Shown: positions 7,429 through 28,860 of the stretch, piece by piece | How positions within the stretch are numbered: position 1 is the first letter of the stretch | Layout: each line of letters starts with the position of its first letter | Assembly (NCBI RefSeq): GCF_029227855.1 | Contig: NZ_CP074358.1 | Reading direction: 5' to 3' (one strand) | Length of the DNA stretch: 64,000 bases | Origin: Escherichia coli | GTDB lineage: Bacteria > Pseudomonadota > Gammaproteobacteria > Enterobacterales > Enterobacteriaceae | The notes under the pieces: generated by a model | Seen by the model: the letters and a program-made list of their open reading frames with translations, nothing else | Database searches by the model: none | What the model was told of the DNA's origin: nothing | Program-made: the position numbers and the translations under genes

Positions 7429-8066
7429 GGGCCAAATACCTCATTCATTAAATGTTCAATTTCTGCTCTGGCTGCTGTATTGTTCGTTTCTACTACACCG
7501 GTGCCGTTGCTCATGCAATCGCGATAGACTTTTCTGAAACAAATAACTGAATCCAGGACTTGAATTGTTGGGAATTCTTCAAGATATTCAAGGAATTCTT
7601 TTCTCTCATTTCCCCTCAAAACCGGATTGGTTGTTGCCATACTTTGTAAACAATAAACCTTAAGTTCCGGGTTAAGGTTACGCATTGCGTCTATCTGTTG
7701 TTCTAGTTCTGTAAGAGTATCCAGATCTGGTTGAGAACACTGTAGTGGCGCAATTATTTGATGTGCGACAACTCCACTCGTTATGAATTCCTTTGAGTTT
7801 CTTCCTGCGACATCCACTATTACATCATCGAACTTTTCATTCAGAGCCTGTAGTGTTTGTGTCAGGTTATCAAATTTCTCAACAAGGGTTATTGCTGGTA
7901 ACAGTCCTGCAGCTTCTCGTTCTGCATGATGTTTTGCGGCTGTTCGTTGTAGATCTCCGTTTAACAGGCAGACTTCCCTTCCTTTATTTGCGAGAGCAAT
8001 AGCCAGGTTTGATGCAATGGTAGTTTTCCCTGAACCACCTTTGTTCCCACCAACTACAGTAATCAT
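7422..8066 (-). CDS. parA: ParA-family partition ATPase (small, ParF-like, about 214 aa)
   Basis: Deviant Walker A GGNKGGSGKTT; start moved to MITVVGG (ATG at 8066 with gagg RBS) rather than the longer ORF-track start. Confidence 0.85.
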   Translation of the reverse strand: MITVVGGNKGGSGKTTIASNLAIALANKGREVCLLNGDLQRTAAKHHAEREAAGLLPAITLVEKFDNLTQTLQALNEKFDDVIVDVAGRNSKEFITSGVVAHQIIAPLQCSQPDLDTLTELEQQIDAMRNLNPELKVYCLQSMATTNPVLRGNERKEFLEYLEEFPTIQVLDSVICFRKVYRDCMSNGTGVVETNNTAARAEIEHLMNEVFGPW

Positions 8067-8084
8067 TGCAACCTCATAAATGTG

Positions 8085-8290
8085 ATGTGTGAAGTATGAT
8101 GATATTTTGACACGGTAACCTGATGTGTCAATATGCATTCATATTTATGAAGTATGAAATATGAAGTGTGTCATATGATGTAATAAATATTACTTGTGTT
8201 TTGTGATTTCATAACTATGATAGTTCTCAAATTGAGTATTACCTTGCAACCAGAAACAGTTATTTACTCAGATTGAGTATTTAAGGGGCT
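8085..8290. repeat. Iteron-rich intergenic region between divergent par operons (candidate shared centromere/promoter region)
   Basis: Repeated atgaagt(a/g)tg and tgtgatttcataa motifs between the divergent parA and parM starts. Confidence 0.5.
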
Positions 8291-8294
8291 ATAG

Positions 8295-9266
8295 ATGAAC
8301 GTATACTGCGATGATGGTTCAACAACAATCAAGTTGGCATGGAATGACAATGGGAAAATCTGTAAGTCGTTGTCGCAAAACTCATTTCGTCATGGATGGA
8401 AGGTTGACGGGTTAGGGATTCGCCAGACATTTAACTATGAACTGGATGGTAAAAAATACACGTATGATGAAGTTAGCAACCAATCTATTCTTACGACTCA
8501 TATTGAGTATCAATATACGGATGTTAACCTGTTAGCTGTGCATCACGCTTTACTGAATAGTGGATTAGCGCCTCAGCCTGTATCATTGACTGTGACTTTA
8601 CCTATCAGTGAGTTCTACACGAAAGAGTGTCAAAAAAATGAACTCAACATTCAGCGTAAAATTGAGAATTTAATGAGGCCGATTCGTCTTAATAAAGGCG
8701 ATGTTTTCACCATTGAACACGTTGATGTGATGCCTGAATCATTGCCAGCTGTGTTTTCTCGTCTGGTCATGGATAAAGTTGGTCAGTTCGAAAAATCGCT
8801 GGTAGTTGATATTGGCGGCACTACGCTTGATGTTGGTGTTATCGTTGGTCAATTTGACTCTGTAAGTGCCATTCATGGTAATTCTGGCATTGGTGTGTCT
8901 TCAGTTACGAAAGCTGCAATGAGTGCATTGCGCATGGCATCCAGTGATACCAGTTTCCTCGTTGCAGATGAATTGATTAAACGTCGTAATGATCCGGATT
9001 TTGTTCGGCAGGTTATAAATGACGAAACAAAAACTGATCTGGTCCTTAATACCATTGAGGGGGCTATTGCCAGTCTGGGGGAGCAAGTAGTCAATGAGCT
9101 CGGTGATTTTCATCATGTGAATCGTGTTTATGTTGTCGGTGGTGGGGCCCCGTTGATCTATGGTTCGATAAAAACGGCATGGCACCATCTTGGGCAAAAA
9201 GTAGTGATGATGGAGTCGCCACAGACAGCACTGGTTGAAGCTATCGCGGCTTTCAAAGAGGAGTAA
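8295..9266 (+). CDS. parM: Actin-like partition ATPase ParM/StbA
   Basis: N-terminal DDGSTTIKLAW and DIGGTTLD motifs of ParM/actin fold; 323 aa. Confidence 0.9.
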   Translation: MNVYCDDGSTTIKLAWNDNGKICKSLSQNSFRHGWKVDGLGIRQTFNYELDGKKYTYDEVSNQSILTTHIEYQYTDVNLLAVHHALLNSGLAPQPVSLTVTLPISEFYTKECQKNELNIQRKIENLMRPIRLNKGDVFTIEHVDVMPESLPAVFSRLVMDKVGQFEKSLVVDIGGTTLDVGVIVGQFDSVSAIHGNSGIGVSSVTKAAMSALRMASSDTSFLVADELIKRRNDPDFVRQVINDETKTDLVLNTIEGAIASLGEQVVNELGDFHHVNRVYVVGGGAPLIYGSIKTAWHHLGQKVVMMESPQTALVEAIAAFKEE

Positions 9267-9674: not shown

Positions 9675-10939
9675 GAAGCAATGGGGATCTCAGTCCATTG
9701 TGTTGTATACGAAGGCGAGAGCATTTCCCGTTTCATTTGCCATTCAGGGGCGGTTCCTCGCCCCGCAAACCACACTTTCCCTTTTCCCGACTGGTTCAGT
9801 TCATCGAGTGTTTTCATTAACTTTTCACTGTTTTTACGGGGCTGGATTTCATCAAATAATCCCGGCTGCGCTATACCCGATGGTGTGAAATCAGCCAGCA
9901 TGACTCCTGCCTTCATATAGCGGTACCCTTCACGCCAGACATGGTTTAAGGCTCTGCATGCGGCGGCAATAATGTCCCGGCTGTCCTGTGTGGGCAATGG
10001 AAGCTTTTCCACAGCGGCATTGCTGTAACAGGGTTCTTTTACTGCAAAGGGGGATGTCCGTACAAATGTCGTCACCTGCCGGCAATACTGACGCTCCCCA
10101 CGTAGTTTCTCTGCGGCCCGCTCTGCATACTGAACAACAGCCTGGTGCATGGCATCTTTGTCTGTGATTCGTTCACCAAAACTGCGACTACAGACAATCT
10201 GCTGTTTTGCCGGTGGTGCTTCTTCCAGGGATATGCAGGACTCGCCGTTGAGTTCGCGTACCGTACGCTCAAGAATGACGCTGAAGTTTTTCCGGATGAA
10301 TGCCGTGTTAGCCTGCGCCAGCTGCAGTGCTGTGTTAATACCCAGCGCATTCAGCTTTTCCGTCAGTCTGCGTCCTACTCCCCAGACCTCACCAACTGGC
10401 TGCAGCCCCAGTAGCTTCAAGGTCCGATTACGGTTTTCTGCCGTCAGCGCGACCACTCCGGAAAACTGTGGCCATTGCTTTGTTGCCCACTGTGCACTTT
10501 TAGCCAGCGTTTTTGTAGGCGCAATGCCCACCCCCATGGTGAGTCCTGTCCAGCTCTTTACCTGTTCCCTGAGCTGATGACCAAAAAACTCCGGAGAGAT
10601 GCAATGATTTATCCCCCGCAAATCAATAAACATTTCATCAATTGAGTAGGGCTCAACTGCGGGAGAAAGCGACTCCAGAACAGCCATGACCCGTTGGCTC
10701 ATGCTGTGGTACAGCGCATAATTGCTGGAAAATACATGTATTTTCTTCTCCAGGCGCATCTGTCTCACCTGAAACCAGGGCTGCCCCATTCTGATGCCAA
10801 GGGCTTTTGCCTCCGGGCTGCGCGCGATCACACAGCCATCGTTATTGCTGAGTACGATGACCGGTTCGTTGCGAAGGTCCGGGCGGAAAACTTTTTCACA
10901 TGAGGCGTAGAAACTGTTGATATCAGCCAGTGCAAACAT
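9668..10939 (-). CDS. impB: Y-family error-prone DNA polymerase catalytic subunit (UmuC/MucB/ImpB family)
   Basis: N-terminus MFALADINSFYASCE...VIVLSNNDGCVIARS, typical UmuC/DinB fold; 423 aa. Confidence 0.9.
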   Translation of the reverse strand: MFALADINSFYASCEKVFRPDLRNEPVIVLSNNDGCVIARSPEAKALGIRMGQPWFQVRQMRLEKKIHVFSSNYALYHSMSQRVMAVLESLSPAVEPYSIDEMFIDLRGINHCISPEFFGHQLREQVKSWTGLTMGVGIAPTKTLAKSAQWATKQWPQFSGVVALTAENRNRTLKLLGLQPVGEVWGVGRRLTEKLNALGINTALQLAQANTAFIRKNFSVILERTVRELNGESCISLEEAPPAKQQIVCSRSFGERITDKDAMHQAVVQYAERAAEKLRGERQYCRQVTTFVRTSPFAVKEPCYSNAAVEKLPLPTQDSRDIIAAACRALNHVWREGYRYMKAGVMLADFTPSGIAQPGLFDEIQPRKNSEKLMKTLDELNQSGKGKVWFAGRGTAPEWQMKREMLSPSYTTQWTEIPIASF

Positions 10940-13323: not shown

Positions 13324-14007
13324 ATGTCCCGTTTTGTCCTCGGTAACTGCATCGATGTTATGGCCCGTATTCCTGATAACGCCATTGATTTCATACTGAC
13401 TGACCCGCCATATCTCGTCGGTTTCCGTGACCGTTCCGGGCGCACCATCGCCGGTGATAAAACCGACGAATGGCTGCAACCGGCCTGTAATGAAATGTAC
13501 CGCGTGCTGAAAAAAGATGCGCTGATGGTGAGCTTCTATGGCTGGAACCGCGTCGATCGCTTTATGGCCGCCTGGAAAAATGCGGGATTCAGCGTGGTTG
13601 GCCACCTGGTATTTACCAAAACCTACACATCGAAGGCCGCATATGTGGGCTATCGCCACGAATGCGCTTACATCCTGGCAAAAGGGCGTCCGGCGCTGCC
13701 TCAGAAGCCATTGCCCGACGTGCTGGGCTGGAAATATTCAGGCAACCGCCATCACCCGACGGAAAAGCCTGTTACCAGCCTGCAACCACTGATTGAGAGC
13801 TTCACACACCCGAACGCGATTGTGCTGGACCCGTTTGCAGGCAGCGGCTCAACCTGTGTGGCTGCCCTTCAGTCCAGACGCCGGTATATCGGTATCGAGC
13901 TGCTTGAACAGTATCACCGTGCCGGACAGCAACGACTGGCCGCCGTGCAACGGGCCATGCAGCAGGGGGCCGCGAATAATAACTGGTTTGAACCGGAGGC
14001 TGCGTAA
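13324..14007 (+). CDS. Orphan DNA methyltransferase (N6-adenine/N4-cytosine type, beta-class motif order)
   Basis: DPPY motif IV (ILTDPPYLVGF) precedes motif I (FAGSGSTCVAA); RBS agaaggag; no restriction endonuclease partner nearby. Confidence 0.85.
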   Translation: MSRFVLGNCIDVMARIPDNAIDFILTDPPYLVGFRDRSGRTIAGDKTDEWLQPACNEMYRVLKKDALMVSFYGWNRVDRFMAAWKNAGFSVVGHLVFTKTYTSKAAYVGYRHECAYILAKGRPALPQKPLPDVLGWKYSGNRHHPTEKPVTSLQPLIESFTHPNAIVLDPFAGSGSTCVAALQSRRRYIGIELLEQYHRAGQQRLAAVQRAMQQGAANNNWFEPEAA

Positions 14008-16816: not shown

Positions 16817-17004
16817 ATATCAGCACAGAAACCCGCGAAATTCTGCGTAATTACAGGGCCGTGATTAATGCGCGGCGTCGTGAAATGGGGCAGAAACCGC
16901 TCACCACCGCGCAGATTGTTGATGAAATCTGCGATTTTGTGGCGAATCAGCAGGCGGTTTTCCTGGGCGGTCACTACATCTTACAGGGTAGCAGAAACAG
17001 GTGA
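16813..17004 (+). CDS. Small hypothetical protein (63 aa), coupled (ATGA overlap)
   Basis: Start overlaps stop of upstream ORF. Confidence 0.4.
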   Translation: MNISTETREILRNYRAVINARRREMGQKPLTTAQIVDEICDFVANQQAVFLGGHYILQGSRNR

Positions 17005-17169
17005 TACAGGGGCAGGCGGTGGAGGCCGCCTGTCAGTCCGCGCGAAAACCCCTGGCAGGCTGACGCCTGCCGGAAGGGAAGCGGACCACGCTGGCGCGTC
17101 GCCCGTTACCCTTCCCGTCTGTGATGTGTCTGACTCAGGAGTGTTTCTTTCTTATGTTATGGAACTGTT

Positions 17170-17625
17170 CCTGATGTTGTTGTTCCTTTATCTGCTGCTC
17201 TGATTCTGACTACTGCAGTGTTGTTCTGTCTGCCGGGCGCACCTTCGGCTCCCGGCATCCCGGCAAAAGGCCGCCGGGATGTAAGGGGCAACGCCGTTTC
17301 GCGCACGCGCTCTCCGTCGTTGCGGCGGGTCCCTGCTCATTGCCTGCCGGTGCCACACACCCGTATGAGTCCCTGTCGCCGGGGGCTGATACAGCCACAA
17401 CCTGCCGCACTGACTGTCCAGGGTAAATGAACAGCCCACAAAATTTTTTACCCAAAACCCGGTAAAAAATTTTGCGTTCTGCCCAGGACAGGTGCGTCAG
17501 GCCGTGGCAGTGATGCCCCTTGCGGCGAAGGTTCTCAAACGGGTGAAGTTCATACCACAGGGAATACAGCAGCAGGTTCCCGCGAAACGTCAAAACCGCG
17601 GCTCCCGAAACTCAACGGGTGATGT
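17170..17625. repeat. Frpo/ssi-like structured non-coding repeat, copy A (short form)
   Basis: Shares 5' block ctgattctgactactgcagtgttg...cgggcgcaccttcggctcccggc and 3' block with copies B and C; lacks ~190 bp internal block; hairpin 17437-17476. Confidence 0.6.
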
Positions 17626-17853
17626 TCTTTAAAAATCAGGATTTATTTCAGGCTCCGGCAATACGCATTTATGTGTTCTGTCAGTCATCCGGCTGGCAGG
17701 TAATGAGAACGCAGGAACAGAAGGAGGAAAACACCGGAGAACGTCAGACGCAGATATGAAAAAAGCAGGTCAGGGACCTGCTTAATCCACACCGCAGAGA
17801 CTGCACGAACAGTCTTTACGGTTTCATTAATTAACGTCATAAGAGGCTAAATT

Positions 17854-18084
17854 ATGACAGTAAGTATTGTTTCACCTTCCGCAGCGGCTGTAAAGCCCCG
17901 CCGTCATCCCCGTTGCAGACGCGAAGACATCCCCGCGCCGGAAATTGACCCCGTGCTGAAAGCCTTCGGGCGACACATTGCCCGGAGTTTTCACCGGGGG
18001 CGTGGTGTACACATCCCCGCCATGAAAAACACGGCCTTCGGGCAGGTGCTCCGCACACTCGAACTGAAACGCGCTTTTAACTGA
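17854..18084 (+). CDS. Small basic hypothetical protein (76 aa)
   Basis: First ORF after repeat copy A; RBS agagg about 10 nt upstream. Confidence 0.35.
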   Translation: MTVSIVSPSAAAVKPRRHPRCRREDIPAPEIDPVLKAFGRHIARSFHRGRGVHIPAMKNTAFGQVLRTLELKRAFN

Positions 18085-18135
18085 TGAGGTGAGCCGCCCC
18101 GCGAGGGGCGGCAACAGACGGAAGGAGAACATTTT

Positions 18136-19497
18136 ATGACATTAGCAGCAATCACCATGACCGCCCCGGAAGCCGCCAGCCCTGTGCAGATGTACCGCGC
18201 GACCTACTCACCGGATGACAACAAACTGCGCCTGTATGCCGTGTCACGTCTTGACTCGGAGACGTATAAAAAAGTGCATGATGCCGGTTTCCGCTGGGCA
18301 CCAAAACAGGCGCTGTTTGTCGCGCCAGCCTGGACACCGGGCCGGGAAGACGTGCTCCTCTCACTTGCCGGAGAGATTGAGGATGAAGACAGCACGCTCG
18401 CTGAACGTCAGGAAGCACGGGCGGAGCGGTTTACCGGATACAGCGGAAAGCGGGCCAGTGAATCCGCACAGGCACTTGATGAAGTGGAAAGACTGGCCGC
18501 GATGATCCCGCCCGGTCAGCCCATTCTTGTGGGGCATCACAGCGAACGCCGCACCCGTCGTGATGCGCAGCGTATTGAAAACGGCATGAAACGAGCCGTG
18601 ATGCTCTTTGAACGTGCGGAATACTGGGAAGAGCGGGCGCGGTCGGCACTGCTTCACGCGAAGTATAAAGAACGTCCGGACGTTCGCTGGCGTCGTATCA
18701 AAAAAATCGAAGCTGATTTGCGCAAGGCTGAAAAGACCATCGCGCAGTCGCAGAAATATCTGACGATGTGGCGGGCTGAATCGCTGGATCTGAATATGGC
18801 AAAACTCATCAGCAGTCATGACCATATCAGCGCCTGTTTCCCGCTGGATACGTATCCGCGCCCGGCAGAAAAAAGCCAGTATGAAGGAAGTCGATCGTTA
18901 TGGTCGGCCCTGGATGATGACATCATCACCACGGAGCAGGCCCGCGAAATTGCGATCCGCTGTCATGAACGGCAGATTCAGCATCAACAACGCTGGGTTA
19001 ACCACTATCAGAACCGCCTGATCTATGAGCGTGCCATGCTGGACGAAAGCGGCGGCGTGGTTACCCGGACACAGGATTTTGAGCCGGGCGGACAGGTTTT
19101 CAGCCGGGGCGAGTGGCTGACCATCATCCGTGTGAACAAAAGCAACGGGGCGGTGAGTTCAGTCACAACGCCAAATTACAGTTTTCTCGGGTACAGCGGC
19201 ACGATGAAAGTGACGCCCGATCGCATCACGGACTACAAAGCACCATCGGCAGAAGAGGCTGCCGTCGCCAGTCAGGCCGCGAAGCGTCCGCCGGTAGTCA
19301 ACTATCCGGGGGAAGGTTTCCGGGAAATGACAAAGGCACAGTGGGCCGCCCTGCCCCGGGACTGTAAGGCCGTGCGCAGTGTGGCAGAAGCAGAAGACCA
19401 CGGGGCATACCGGTACCGCCGCACAATGGACAATAATTTCCGCCTGGTGAATGTGTATATCACCGACATGAAAATCACGGAAATCCCACAGAAATAA
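18136..19497 (+). CDS. Conserved hypothetical protein, 453 aa (DUF3560-like large leading-region protein)
   Basis: Long ORF with RBS ggaaggaga; charged helical middle region; family assignment from memory only. Confidence 0.65.
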   Translation: MTLAAITMTAPEAASPVQMYRATYSPDDNKLRLYAVSRLDSETYKKVHDAGFRWAPKQALFVAPAWTPGREDVLLSLAGEIEDEDSTLAERQEARAERFTGYSGKRASESAQALDEVERLAAMIPPGQPILVGHHSERRTRRDAQRIENGMKRAVMLFERAEYWEERARSALLHAKYKERPDVRWRRIKKIEADLRKAEKTIAQSQKYLTMWRAESLDLNMAKLISSHDHISACFPLDTYPRPAEKSQYEGSRSLWSALDDDIITTEQAREIAIRCHERQIQHQQRWVNHYQNRLIYERAMLDESGGVVTRTQDFEPGGQVFSRGEWLTIIRVNKSNGAVSSVTTPNYSFLGYSGTMKVTPDRITDYKAPSAEEAAVASQAAKRPPVVNYPGEGFREMTKAQWAALPRDCKAVRSVAEAEDHGAYRYRRTMDNNFRLVNVYITDMKITEIPQK

Positions 19498-19544
19498 GGT
19501 ATATCCCCCCGGGAAAATCCCCGGAGGATGACGGAGATAATGAT

Positions 19545-20108
19545 ATGCACAGTCAGTTAAGAGAACGTATCCGGCTGATGCGCGCAAGGCTGGATAACGC
19601 CGCGCCGGTTGCTGAAATCCGGGCTGAATCTCAGCTTTTTGTGACTCCTGCCCCGGTCTGTGATCGCCTGGTGATGCTGGCGGAGATCAGCAACCGTGAT
19701 CACATTCTGGAACCCTCTGCCGGCACCGGGGCCATACTGCGGGCGATTCGGGATACCGCGCCGGGGGCCATGTGTGATGCGGTGGAAATCAACAGCGGGC
19801 TGGTCCGGTATCTGCGGGAAAATTTTAACGGTGTCAGGGTTCAGTGTGGCGACTTCATGGAATGGCAGCCAGTGCAGTATTACAGCCGGGTTATCATGAA
19901 TCCGCCGTTCAGCCACGGGCAGGATATCCGGCATATCCTGCGGGCCTTTTCCCTGTTGCGTCCGGGTGGCGTGCTGGTCGCCGTCTGTCTCAACGGACCA
20001 CGCCAGCAGGAGAAGCTGTTACCGTTTTCTGACGTCCGCGAGGAGCTGCCGCGCGGCACGTTTGCTTATACCGATGTCCCGACGATGATTATTCGTCTGC
20101 GTGCCTGA
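19545..20108 (+). CDS. Small SAM-dependent methyltransferase-like protein (187 aa), candidate second orphan methyltransferase
   Basis: Motif I EPSAGTGA and NPPF motif; RBS ggagg. Confidence 0.65.
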   Translation: MHSQLRERIRLMRARLDNAAPVAEIRAESQLFVTPAPVCDRLVMLAEISNRDHILEPSAGTGAILRAIRDTAPGAMCDAVEINSGLVRYLRENFNGVRVQCGDFMEWQPVQYYSRVIMNPPFSHGQDIRHILRAFSLLRPGGVLVAVCLNGPRQQEKLLPFSDVREELPRGTFAYTDVPTMIIRLRA

Positions 20109-20264
20109 TGACACAGGGCCGGCGGGAGGATAAATGCCTGTCTGCCCGCGCCGGGAAAAAACGCGCGCCGGTGGCGCTGAAAGGGGCCGCGCTCACGCGC
20201 CGCCCCTTTCATTACGCGGACGTTCTGATGGGGGCTTCTGTTTCTTCATGCCTGTCATTTGTCT

Positions 20265-20965
20265 GTTACTGATGATGTTGTTGTTCCTGCTACTGCTACT
20301 GCTACTGCTACTGCTACTGCTACTGTTCTTCTTTTTCCTGCTGCTCTGATTCTGACTACTGCAGTGTTGTCCTGTCTGCCGGGCGCACCTTCGGCTCCCG
20401 GCTGCCTGGCGGCATCCGGTCGTCAGGCCCGACTCCGACAGGCAGCTGCTGGCGCACCTGCCAGTCTCCGCCGAACCCGCTGGCGCGGTTTCGGGCTGTC
20501 GCTACGGTCCGATGCGTGAAAACCCCGGGCTTGCAGCGACCGTTCCGGTCGCGCCACCCTTGTCGCGCCGTGGCCTGCGCTCCTGGCATCCCGGCAAAAG
20601 GCCGCCGGGATGTAAGGGGCAACGCCGTTTCGCAAACCGCGCTTCACGTCGTTGCGGCGGGTCCCTGCCCGTTGTTCTGTCCGGTGCCATTCACCTGTTT
20701 AAGCCCCTGTCGCCGGGGGCAAAGACAGCCACAACCGTCTCCGCCAGTCCAGGGGTGAAATGTACATCCCGCAAAACTTTTTGCCCAAAAGCAGGCAAAA
20801 ACTTTTGCGGTCTGCCCCCGGACAGTCGTTTCCGTCCGTGGCAGTGATGCCCCTTGCGGCGAAGGTTCTCAAAAAGGTGATGGTGAATACCGGAGGGAAC
20901 AAAAGGCAGGTCCCCGCAAAACGTCAAAACCGCGGCTCCCGAAACTCAAAAGATGATGGGGGCTG
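20265..20965. repeat. Frpo/ssi-like structured non-coding repeat, copy B (long form), immediately upstream of ssb
   Basis: Near-identical to copy C over ~620 bp; hairpin ccgcaaaactttttgcc-caaaagca-ggcaaaaacttttgcgg at 20769-20810. Confidence 0.6.
20287..20325. repeat. Hexanucleotide microsatellite (CTGCTA)x6.5
   Basis: Six perfect tandem ctgcta units plus ctg, at the 5' edge of repeat copy B; absent from copies A and C. Confidence 0.9.
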
Positions 20966-20991
20966 AAAACATCAACAGAAGGAGGCACATC

Positions 20992-25056: not shown

Positions 25057-25249
25057 TGCGGCAACAATCACACGGATTTCCCGTGAACGGTCTGAATGAG
25101 CGGATTATTTTCAGGGAAAGTGAGTGTGGTCAGCGTGCAGGTATATGGGCTATGATGTGCCCGGCGCTTGAGGCTTTCTGCCTCATGACGTGAAGGTGGT
25201 TTGTTGCCGTGTTGTGTGGCAGAAAGAAGATAGCCCCGTAGTAAGTTAA

Positions 25250-25320
25250 TTTTCATTAACCACCACGAGGCATCCCTATGTCTAGTCCACATCAGGATAG
25301 CCTCTTACCGCGCTTTGCGC
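25250..25320 (-). ncRNA. sok: Candidate Sok-like antisense RNA of the hok/mok locus (approximate coordinates)
   Basis: Inferred from hok/sok architecture; region antisense to the mok translation-initiation region. Confidence 0.35.
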
Positions 25321-25490
25321 AAGGAGAAGAAGGCCATGAAACTACCACGAAGTTCCCTTGTCTGGTGTGTGTTGATCGTGTGTCTCACACTGTTGATATT
25401 CACTTATCTGACACGAAAATCGCTGTGCGAGATTCGTTACAGAGACGGACACAGGGAGGTGGCGGCTTTCATGGCTTACGAATCCGGTAA
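25278..25490 (+). CDS. mok: Mok-like overlapping reading frame (modulator of hok translation)
   Basis: 70-codon ORF overlapping hok in another frame, as in hok/sok loci. Confidence 0.5.
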
Positions 25491-25494: not shown

Positions 25495-25744
25495 CAACCT
25501 GGAGGCGGGCGCAGGCCCGCCTTTTCAGGACTGATGCTGGTCTGACTACTGAAGCGCCTTTATAAAGGGGCTGCTGGTTCGCCGGTAGCCCCTTTCTCCT
25601 TGCTGATGTTGTACGGGCATGAACAACCTGACTTCAGGAAGGTCGTTTCCCTTCAGGAACGGGGATGAACGCGCGCCTGCGGCGCCCGTTCTTTTCCCCC
25701 GCCTTCTCTGGTTATGGCCTGTCAGAAATCACATCACCTTCCCT

Positions 25745-26395
25745 GTGATTATTCTCTTTTTCTTCCTGCTCTGATTCTGACTACTGCAGTGTTGTCCTGT
25801 CTGCCGGGCGCACCTTCGGCTCCCGGCTGCCTGGCGGCATCCGGTCGTCAGGCCCGACTCCGACAGGCAGCTGCTGGCGCACCTGCCAGTCTCCGCCGAA
25901 CCCGCTGGCGCGGTTTCGGGCTGTCGCTACGGTCCGATGCGTGAAAACCCCGGGCTTGCAGCGACCGTTCCGGTCGCGCCGCCTCTGTCGCGCCGTGGCC
26001 TGCGCTCCTGGCATCCCGGCAAAAGGCCGCCGGGATGTAAGGGGCAACGCCGTTTCGCAAACCGCGCTTCACGTCGTTGCGGCGGGTCCCTGCCCGTTGT
26101 TCTGTCCGGTGCCATTCACCTGTTTAAGCCCCTGTCGCCGGGGGCTGATACAGCCACAACCTGCCGCACTGACTGTCCAGGGTAAATGAACAGCCCGCAA
26201 AACTTTTTGCCCAGAAGCAGGCAAAAACTTTTGCGGTCTGCCCCCGGACAGTCGTTTCCGGCCGTGGCAGTGATGCCCCATGCGGCGAAGGTTCTCAAAC
26301 AGGTGATGGTGAATACCGGAGGGAACAAAAGGCAGGTCCCCGCAAAACGTCAAAACCGCGGCTCCCGAAACTCAACAGATGATGGGGGCTGAAAA
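25745..26395. repeat. Frpo/ssi-like structured non-coding repeat, copy C (long form)
   Basis: Near-identical to copy B; hairpin 26195-26236; 3' part resembles copy A (ctgatacagccacaacctgccgcactgactgtccagggtaaatgaacagccc). Confidence 0.6.
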
Positions 26396-26416
26396 CCAGA
26401 GAGAGGAGAAAGCAGG

Positions 26417-28499: not shown

Positions 28500-28860
28500 A
28501 AAAGGCTCAACAGGTTGGTGGTTCTCACCACCAAAAGCACCACACCCCACGCAAAAACAAGTTTTTGCTGATTTTTCTTTATAAATAGAGAGTTATGAAA
28601 AATTAGTTTCTCTTACTCTCTTTATGATATTTAAAAAAGCGGTGTCGGCGCGGCTACAACAACGCGCCGACACCGCTTTGTAGGGGTGGTGCTGACTATT
28701 TTTATAAAAAACATTATTTTATATTAGGGGTGCTGCTAGCGGCGCGGTGTGTTTTTTTATAGGATACCGCTAGGGGCGCTGCTAGCGGTGCGTCCCTGTT
28801 TGCATTATGAATTTTAGTGTTTCGAAATTAACTTTATTTTATGTTCAAAAAAGGTAATCT
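28500..28860. other. oriT: Origin of transfer (oriT) with F-type nic region and inverted/direct repeats
   Basis: Bottom strand carries ttgcgtggggtgtggtgcttttggtggtgagaacc (F-like nic sequence, nick near 28540/28541); 14-bp inverted repeat gcggtgtcggcgcg/cgcgccgacaccgc at 28639-28676; direct repeats gctgctagcgg(c/t)gcg. Confidence 0.75.

Follow-up and report, generated by a model that had tools for sequence, protein, structure and literature searches.

A split DUF3560-methyltransferase pair, probably a transient DNA adenine methylase, in an IncF-type leading region

Within a 64,000-nucleotide stretch of Escherichia coli DNA (contig NZ_CP074358.1, assembly GCF_029227855.1; hereafter the window), we analyzed a block of three plus-strand open reading frames (ORFs): a small ydaB-like ORF of 76 amino acids (aa; 17854-18084), ydbA, encoding a 453-aa DUF3560 protein (18136-19497), and ydcA, encoding a 187-aa amino-methyltransferase (19545-20108). 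The products of the two larger genes correspond to the two halves of a protein that is fused in most relatives, and it is very likely that they work as a unit. This unit is probably a transient DNA adenine methylase. The explanation that best accounts for the block as a whole is a two-part adenine methyltransferase, devoid of a recognition domain and expressed zygotically from an Frpo-type promoter, a scenario to which, in its entirety, we give an even chance.

The link between the two proteins emerges from their family. Relatives were sought exhaustively among 1.84 billion cluster representatives, which yielded 3907; of those at 40-55% identity, most are 620-700 aa long. When the two proteins of the window were compared by BLAST with the best 147 representatives (50% clustering), 98 of them were found to combine an N-terminal YdbA-like module with a C-terminal domain that shares 34-48% identity with YdcA; in 82 of these fused representatives the two modules are both of full length, typically with a linker of 27-130 residues in between. 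Pfam searches of a 105-member alignment identified DUF3560 in all 105 sequences and MTS in 55-76. In Enterobacterales the two halves are separate yet adjacent, and such split neighbors recur in plasmids of Klebsiella, Paramixta, and Pantoea; when a fused relative served as tblastn query, every one of the 5000 best PLSDB records contained the two halves side by side in the same orientation. Given fusion in most relatives and this constant adjacency, the fusion/fission argument therefore implies that the products of ydbA and ydcA act together. The original prediction for this DNA had treated the 453-aa protein as an independent unknown, a view that its fusion to the same methyltransferase domain in most relatives contradicts.

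Fused genes reside on MOBF/MPF_F conjugative plasmids of the Betaproteobacteria Alicycliphilus and Denitratisoma, beside ssb, DUF932, kleA, and radC, and also on plasmids of Acidovorax, Comamonas, Burkholderia, and Pseudomonas. Matches in the AlphaFold database (AFDB) widen the family to Deltaproteobacteria, Acidobacteria, and Planctomycetes.

Two loci display rearranged versions of the pair. On a Pantoea-type plasmid contig (L003, 6416-8591), two in-frame stops cut the YdbA module into three pieces, followed by the methyltransferase gene. The cuts coincide with predicted domain borders (hidden Markov model (HMM) positions 4-68, 70-256, and 260-424), and the interrupted module could be a pseudogene, a domain-wise fission, or a case of readthrough. 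On a wastewater metagenome contig (L015, 4512-5430), the methyltransferase gene that follows a YdbA-like gene is broken, with its N-terminal third on the plus strand and the remainder inverted on the minus strand.

YdcA adopts the class I seven-stranded Rossmann methyltransferase fold, and its sequence supports assignment as a gamma-class (TaqI/EcoKI-like) amino-methyltransferase catalytic domain of the adenine-N6 type. Motif I (E56-PSAGTG-A63) precedes motif IV (N119-PPF-122), the order required for the gamma class. These are the two motifs from which the 187-aa protein had initially been recognized as an amino-methyltransferase, and in 79 fusion relatives they vary little or not at all, as is also true of T34-P35, E81, and D103-F104; in fusion-alignment numbering, G513, G515, N572, P573, and P574 are invariant in the 79 relatives. 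The segment F32-V-T34-P35 aligns to the ETP motif of M.TaqI, with the threonine and proline (T487 and P488 of the alignment) at least 90% conserved. A TP-capped N-terminal helix, motif I, and an NPPF-type motif are the marks of EcoKI/TaqI-like adenine methyltransferases in polyvalent proteins of phages and plasmids (Iyer et al. 2017, PMC5512222). Among solved structures, YdcA is matched best in sequence by the M.TaqI catalytic domain (E 3e-6), in an alignment that takes in the N-terminal TP motif. The YdcA chain ends where this catalytic domain ends and therefore lacks a target-recognition domain, which M.TaqI carries at its C terminus. An HsdS specificity subunit is likewise absent, and YdbA is no more than a candidate substitute for it.

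Profile libraries gave less specific answers for YdcA. Pfam returned weak matches to MTS, Methyltransf_25, and RrnaAD, and the NCBIfam models for Erm, KsgA, and PrmC were matched far below their cut-offs. All PADLOC matches are DNA methyltransferases, from a library that holds defense-system proteins only; the best of these (E 1.2e-20, YdcA aa 28-185) is Mad2 (PDLC04134), a 492-aa protein of the multigene MADS defense system. No other mad genes are present here, and YdbA matches no PADLOC model. YdcA also resembles domains inside giant phage proteins (E 1e-21 to 1e-32), among them phrog_15406, annotated as "DNA methyltransferase". One such protein, a 3066-aa podophage protein of Vibrio phage 252E42.2 (L013, 1-9201), contains a YdcA-type domain of 34% identity; we looked for a YdbA-like module in the same protein and found none.

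For YdbA, the sole Pfam match is DUF3560 (PF12083; aa 89-206, E 1.6e-36), in keeping with the earlier observation that the protein has no recognizable catalytic motif. An AlphaFold2 model based on a 105-sequence alignment (predicted local distance difference test (pLDDT) 94, predicted template modeling score (pTM) 0.82) comprises a small N-terminal alpha/beta domain (aa 20-85), a bundle of very long helices (88-312), and C-terminal beta-rich domains (320-445). Conservation focuses on a loop at the tip of a helical hairpin (G127-QPILVGHHS-136), on many arginines of the helices, and on R286, W287, H290, R294, and E298. The protein is basic (pI 8.85), particularly its DUF3560 part (pI 10.2). By sequence, YdbA matched no solved structure at E values up to 1; a profile of the fusion alignment searched against the Protein Data Bank (PDB) matched through its methyltransferase part and not through its YdbA part. 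Foldseek searches of AFDB50 returned DUF3560 family members only, with no informative fold match outside the family, and there was no match in NCBIfam or PADLOC and only families of unknown function in PHROGs. We infer that YdbA is a non-catalytic partner module of the methyltransferase.

We considered whether YdbA could instead be a DNA-mimic antirestriction decoy of the strongly acidic ArdA/Ocr type, and rejected this on account of its basic charge and its fusion to a methyltransferase; searches of NCBIfam, Pfam, and PADLOC returned neither an ArdA nor an Ocr family. A free-standing decoy is in any case unlikely because ydbA and ydcA are the split version of one protein. Of the two roles suggested at the outset for an anti-defense module in this position, protective methylation remains the most plausible, and the decoy is unlikely.

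All three ORFs are borne out as genes with a coding-type substitution pattern. Codon-position comparisons drew on Klebsiella and Paramixta homologues. In the small ORF, substitutions relative to Klebsiella homologues (78-80% nucleotide identity) fall at codon positions 1/2/3 in the numbers 10/11/30 and 9/10/27, without insertions or deletions; the corresponding counts between the window and Klebsiella are 81/69/242 for ydbA and 57/44/100 for ydcA. In PLSDB, the stretch 17000-21600 matches at least 5000 plasmids, 3800 of these across at least 80% of its length, and the 76-aa frame of the small ORF is kept in at least 5000 plasmids. Most of the carriers are conjugative plasmids of the MOBF/MPF_F type from Escherichia, Klebsiella, Salmonella, and Shigella. 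The third-position bias and the plasmid matches therefore argue that the three ORFs are not chance frames. Each is preceded by a Shine-Dalgarno (SD) sequence: AAGAGG at 17841-17846 for the small ORF, GGAAGGAG at 18120-18127 for ydbA, and GGAG at 19533-19536 for ydcA. A G+C-rich hairpin without a T-run (GCCGCCCC-GCGA-GGGGCGGC, plus strand, 18093-18112), read from the sequence, lies between the small ORF and ydbA.

The gene ydcA evolves faster than ydbA: protein identity between the window and the Klebsiella-type locus (L010) is 59% for YdcA and 75% for YdbA, and between the window and Paramixta 58% and 68%, respectively. Paralogues of the three proteins were not found elsewhere in the window. 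The tract that separates ydcA from repeat copy B (20134-20349) is of low complexity and rich in CTG, CTT, and CTA, giving rise to a spurious poly-Leu/Phe ORF.

The window contains an IncF-type leading region. Its gene order runs from an M.EcoGIX-type methylase (13324-14007) through a KlcA-type antirestriction gene, DUF1380, the ydaB-ydbA-ydcA block, ssb, DUF905, the ParB-like yfjB, psiB, hok/sok (sok at 25162-25338), and oriT to traM. The minus strand carries, at 28534-28550, a perfect copy of the F-type nic site of oriT (GTGGGGTGT/GGTGCTTT); 0.01 matches would be expected by chance. With nic on the minus strand, it is the minus strand that is transferred, and this strand is therefore the template for the plus-strand genes of the block; it enters 5' to 3' toward lower coordinates, with the block 8.4-10.7 kb from nic.

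Three copies of a repeat are present in the window: A at about 17164-17636, B at about 20310-20970, and a third at about 25735-26396. Copy A, on the minus strand (17205-17640), is a candidate Frpo-type single-stranded DNA (ssDNA) promoter reading into the plus-strand genes of the block, and copy B, also on the minus strand, lies upstream of ssb and forms the downstream border of the cassette, with a start-to-start spacing of 3334 nt between the two copies. Folding of the copy A minus strand gives a long, imperfect hairpin (dG -115.3 kcal/mol, z -8.07; none of 100 shuffles as good), an architecture of the kind described for Frpo and class 1 ssDNA promoters, and the copy shares 93% identity with the Frpo element that precedes ssb in the F plasmid. 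No sigma-70-like promoter was found on the plus strand within 17000-20400. The hairpin of copy A, nic, and the gene orientation agree in placing the block downstream of an Frpo-like element in a leading region, as had been proposed from the sequence, and the agreement of nic, transferred strand, and gene orientation supports a model of leading-region expression.

The ydaB-ydbA-ydcA cassette is absent from the classic F plasmid (NC_002483). Compared with window positions 17160-20970, the Frpo element upstream of ssb in F (9987-10640) is a mosaic, with a center of the copy A type and flanks of the copy B type. A simple deletion by recombination of A with B was rejected as the origin of the F arrangement, since the mosaic element has no clean junction; its sequence suggests loss or gain of the cassette by recombination or gene conversion between the repeats. 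On the Alicycliphilus plasmid pALIDE201 (L017), about 1 kb without annotated genes (7895-8890) precedes the fused DUF3560-methyltransferase gene. The minus strand of this region folds beyond its shuffles (z -5.35), with a hairpin of roughly 250 nt, and may, by this modeling, be an unrelated ssDNA-promoter-like element.

Measured against known systems, the cassette belongs with the leading-region orphan methyltransferases, as a variant of that known kind. The leading region of the window carries two unrelated adenine methyltransferases, YdcA and the product of the gene at 13324-14007, a beta-class enzyme of the M.EcoGIX type that matches NCBIfam PRK13699 (496 bits) and the Type II MTase model of PADLOC (E 2e-141), so that the reading of YdcA as a second, distinct methyltransferase holds. 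Like M.EcoGIX and M.BceJIII (Fomenkov et al. 2020, PMC7736820), ydbA and ydcA are leading-region genes that can be transcribed from the transferred strand, and YdcA is, like those enzymes, an adenine amino-methyltransferase for which a transient protective methylation of entering DNA is proposed. Protective ssDNA methylation by the leading-region enzyme M.EcoGIX in that work provides the precedent. The position of YdcA is that of the M.EcoGIX type, in the leading region, transcribable from the transferred strand, and behind a hairpin of the ssDNA-promoter type. The proteins themselves are not homologous: M.EcoGIX is a beta-class N6_N4_Mtase, whereas YdcA is gamma-class and TaqI-like, measures 187 aa, and has a DUF3560 partner. 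M.EcoGIX activity has been measured (SAY sites on ssDNA), whereas that of YdcA is predicted.

In its proposed logic, a recognition-less gamma-class catalytic unit that depends on a separate subunit, the YdcA-YdbA pair resembles HsdM-HsdS of type I systems, and YdbA, like HsdS, is predicted to have both globular domains and long antiparallel helices. YdcA differs from the HsdM of EcoKI in lacking its N- and C-terminal domains, a cognate nuclease, and HsdS. A further likeness is to the DarB-type polyvalent proteins (Iyer et al. 2017, PMC5512222), in which a YdcA-type domain lies inside giant phage proteins. Only the methyltransferase domain is common to both: the 187-aa YdcA stands alone, without the LPD36 and SNF2 helicase of the DarB-type methylase-helicase dyad, its partner is a DUF3560 protein, and, as far as known, it is made in the recipient and not injected.

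Upstream of ydbA, the start of the small ORF is overlapped on the minus strand by the cis-antisense RNA AS-pc01 (17760-17859; Rfam RF02875, 98.9 bits against a gathering threshold of 79, model positions 1-99 of 99), which the original prediction had missed. A sequence scan identified a sigma-70-like promoter for this RNA on the minus strand (17894-17866; TTTACA-17-AACAAT with a TG-extended -10) and, on the same strand, a terminator-like hairpin with a T-run (17783-17763). The 5' stem-loop of AS-pc01 is complementary to the SD sequence (17841-17846) and start codon (17854) of the 76-aa ORF. In the Klebsiella locus (L010), the RNA is found at the same relative position (94.8 bits), with compensatory changes in stems 2 and 3. 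Rfam describes AS-pc01 as "antisense to pHK01_035", which is presumably the 76-aa ORF. Because AS-pc01 has the sequence of the minus strand, it can be transcribed from the plus strand only, that is, after complementary-strand synthesis, and would thereby help to silence the cassette after establishment. It resembles the cis-antisense RNAs of IncF plasmids that occlude the ribosome-binding site of a leader ORF (CopA on tap/repA, FinP on traJ, and Sok on mok/hok) in being short, structured, and terminator-ended, and in that its 5' hairpin pairs with the SD sequence and start codon of a small ORF ahead of larger genes. For AS-pc01, the regulation of its target and a coupling to ydbA and ydcA are putative.

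The 76-aa protein is very basic (pI 11.8, 15 K+R) and has no hydrophobic stretch, which sets it apart from type I toxins; a type I toxin-antitoxin reading of the small ORF and AS-pc01 was accordingly rejected. A marginal, partial Pfam match to HU-CCDC81_euk_1 (aa 26-62, model positions 19-55 of 89, E 8.7e-4) points to a possible partial HU/IHF-like DNA-binding fold. On the Klebsiella oxytoca plasmid pCAV1752-278 (L011, 3501-4611), a 79%-identical small ORF and the following hairpin precede a different, HsdM-like 277-aa "N-6 DNA methylase" near oriT. Homology to the window is confined there to 17866-18117, from the small ORF through the hairpin, and then stops. With a different methylase behind it in K. 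oxytoca, the small ORF therefore behaves as a portable leader for methylase genes.

These elements can be assembled into one expression cassette, consisting of the Frpo-type ssDNA promoter of copy A, the ydaB-like gene gated by AS-pc01, ydbA, and ydcA. In the proposed mechanism, YdcA would be a minimal N6-adenine catalytic domain in a physical complex with the basic, arginine-rich YdbA, whose part would be to bind or target the substrate. As the minus strand entered single-stranded during conjugation, the Frpo hairpin of copy A would form on it, and host RNA polymerase would transcribe the cassette early; the enzyme would then methylate adenines of the incoming plasmid DNA ahead of restriction enzymes, serving an antirestriction purpose. 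Synthesis of the complementary strand would abolish the hairpin promoter and allow the production of AS-pc01, which would then block translation of the small ORF and probably damp the whole cassette. A more specific version of this mechanism, which we put forward as a tentative possibility, makes DUF3560 a new class of targeting partner: YdbA may bind single-stranded or newly converted DNA non-specifically, so that YdcA hypermethylates the entering strand and provides broad, simultaneous cover against many restriction systems, while the two-key strand logic of Frpo and AS-pc01 limits expression to the zygotic window.

A number of observations weigh against this scenario. An AlphaFold2 model of concatenated YdbA and YdcA, built on the natural-fusion alignment, has good domains but a pTM of 0.63, compared with 0.82 for YdbA alone, and no rigid interface is predicted. 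Some YdbA-like genes (L014-L016) are without an intact adjoining methyltransferase, which leaves the link between the two proteins strong but not absolute. The elements with demonstrated early transcription are those of F (Frpo1 and Frpo2) and of IncI1 plasmids (ssi1-3), not copy A. The F plasmid transfers well without the cassette, which is hence dispensable in laboratory matings. Published early-expression data cover F and pESBL; since F has no cassette, recent expression studies based on it do not cover the cassette. On the side of the substrate, rRNA adenine methyltransferases (Dim1, KsgA, Erm, and METTL5) score about as high as DNA enzymes in profile and fold searches with YdcA, and homology therefore does not decide on which polymer the enzyme acts. 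To our knowledge, no additional methylation motif has been assigned to ydcA in the methylomes of IncF-carrying E. coli, which fits a non-DNA target, yet also fits transient expression.

These last two points leave room for an alternative in which YdbA-YdcA methylates host or plasmid RNA (rRNA, tRNA, or mRNA at adenine N6) or protein, reprogramming the host transiently after entry instead of protecting the plasmid from restriction. We regard this as unlikely. Clear homology to housekeeping RNA methyltransferases, the outcome that the original prediction had set against its own reading, did not appear: YdcA scores fall at about 29-34 bits (Erm, 33.8 against a cut-off of 212; KsgA, 29.1 against 171), far below family cut-offs that span 171-320, and a housekeeping or resistance rRNA adenine methyltransferase (KsgA/RsmA or Erm) was rejected on these sub-threshold scores. 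The highest sequence identity of YdcA is to a DNA enzyme, M.TaqI, the same type of domain sits in phage and plasmid polyvalent proteins assigned to a DNA adenine methyltransferase clade, and fused homologues accompany ssb, radC, and antirestriction genes. Gene context thus favors DNA, which we take, with modest confidence, to be the substrate of YdbA-YdcA.

If the substrate is DNA, methylation could still serve an epigenetic or replicative role and not restriction evasion, for instance if it labeled the strand that enters, set the time of complementary-strand synthesis, or governed gene expression in the leading region. The cassette does lie beside an ssDNA promoter and primer elements, M.EcoGIX interacts with replication (PolI dependence and copy-number effects; Fomenkov et al., PMC7736820), and an enzyme without a recognition domain may not reproduce the specific sites needed against a given restriction system. 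Methylation of low specificity would, however, also protect broadly, orphan methyltransferases of phages and of pESBL are documented as protective, and no hemimethylation-sensing partner is evident in the cassette, all of which makes this role rather improbable. That the 453-aa protein is an independent anti-defense effector or decoy merely adjoining an unrelated methyltransferase is very improbable. In its favor, the fold of YdbA resembles nothing informative beyond DUF3560 relatives, the conserved loop GQPILVGHHS might serve in binding or catalysis, and a few YdbA-like genes have no intact methyltransferase neighbor, but covalent fusion to a methyltransferase is the majority architecture, YdbA is basic and not an acidic DNA mimic, its gene adjoins ydcA constantly in at least 5000 plasmids, and it matches no PADLOC, NCBIfam, or anti-defense family.

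The block had been presented as uncharacterized; its genes, however, already bear names, and their families have already been listed in a survey. RefSeq labels the three products as a hypothetical protein, a DUF3560 domain-containing protein, and a class I SAM-dependent methyltransferase, respectively; the names ydbA and ydcA are used for the two larger genes in some plasmid records, and the small ORF is called YdaB in one UniRef entry. Among leading-region-enriched families, Samuel et al. 2024 list family 28 (DUF3560/"YdbA", 1913 members, median ORF position 12 from oriT, "uncharacterized") and family 26 ("adenine-specific DNA-methyltransferase", 1957 members, ORF position 11), 401 members of the latter being labeled 23S rRNA dimethyltransferase. 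By name, family size, and adjacent position, though not by accession, these are almost certainly ydbA and ydcA. Our literature search found no paper testing the function of either gene.

Klebsiella type I-E CRISPR arrays have been reported to carry spacers directed at the Frpo-type repeat as well as at the DUF3560 and methyltransferase genes (PMC6965323). These spacers map to orthologous window positions 17307-17338, 18670-18701, 19150-19181, and 19902-19933. The repeat-targeting spacer has 2 mismatches to Frpo copy A; against the E. coli-type sequence, 7-8 mismatches were counted for the spacers aimed at ydbA and ydcA, one of which lies on the NPPF codons. Spacers against ydbA and ydcA show that hosts meet this region.

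In E. coli, Klebsiella, Salmonella, and Shigella, thousands of resistance and virulence plasmids of the IncF type carry the cassette, and the two probable corresponding families are among the 30 largest leading-region-enriched families. Seen as the halves of a single split enzyme, ydbA and ydcA are no longer two unknowns but the subject of one concrete hypothesis. If this hypothesis is true, DUF3560, which is present across several bacterial phyla, would gain a role, a second and mechanistically different protective methylase would join the biology of plasmid establishment, and the enzyme may offer a possible target for limiting plasmid spread.

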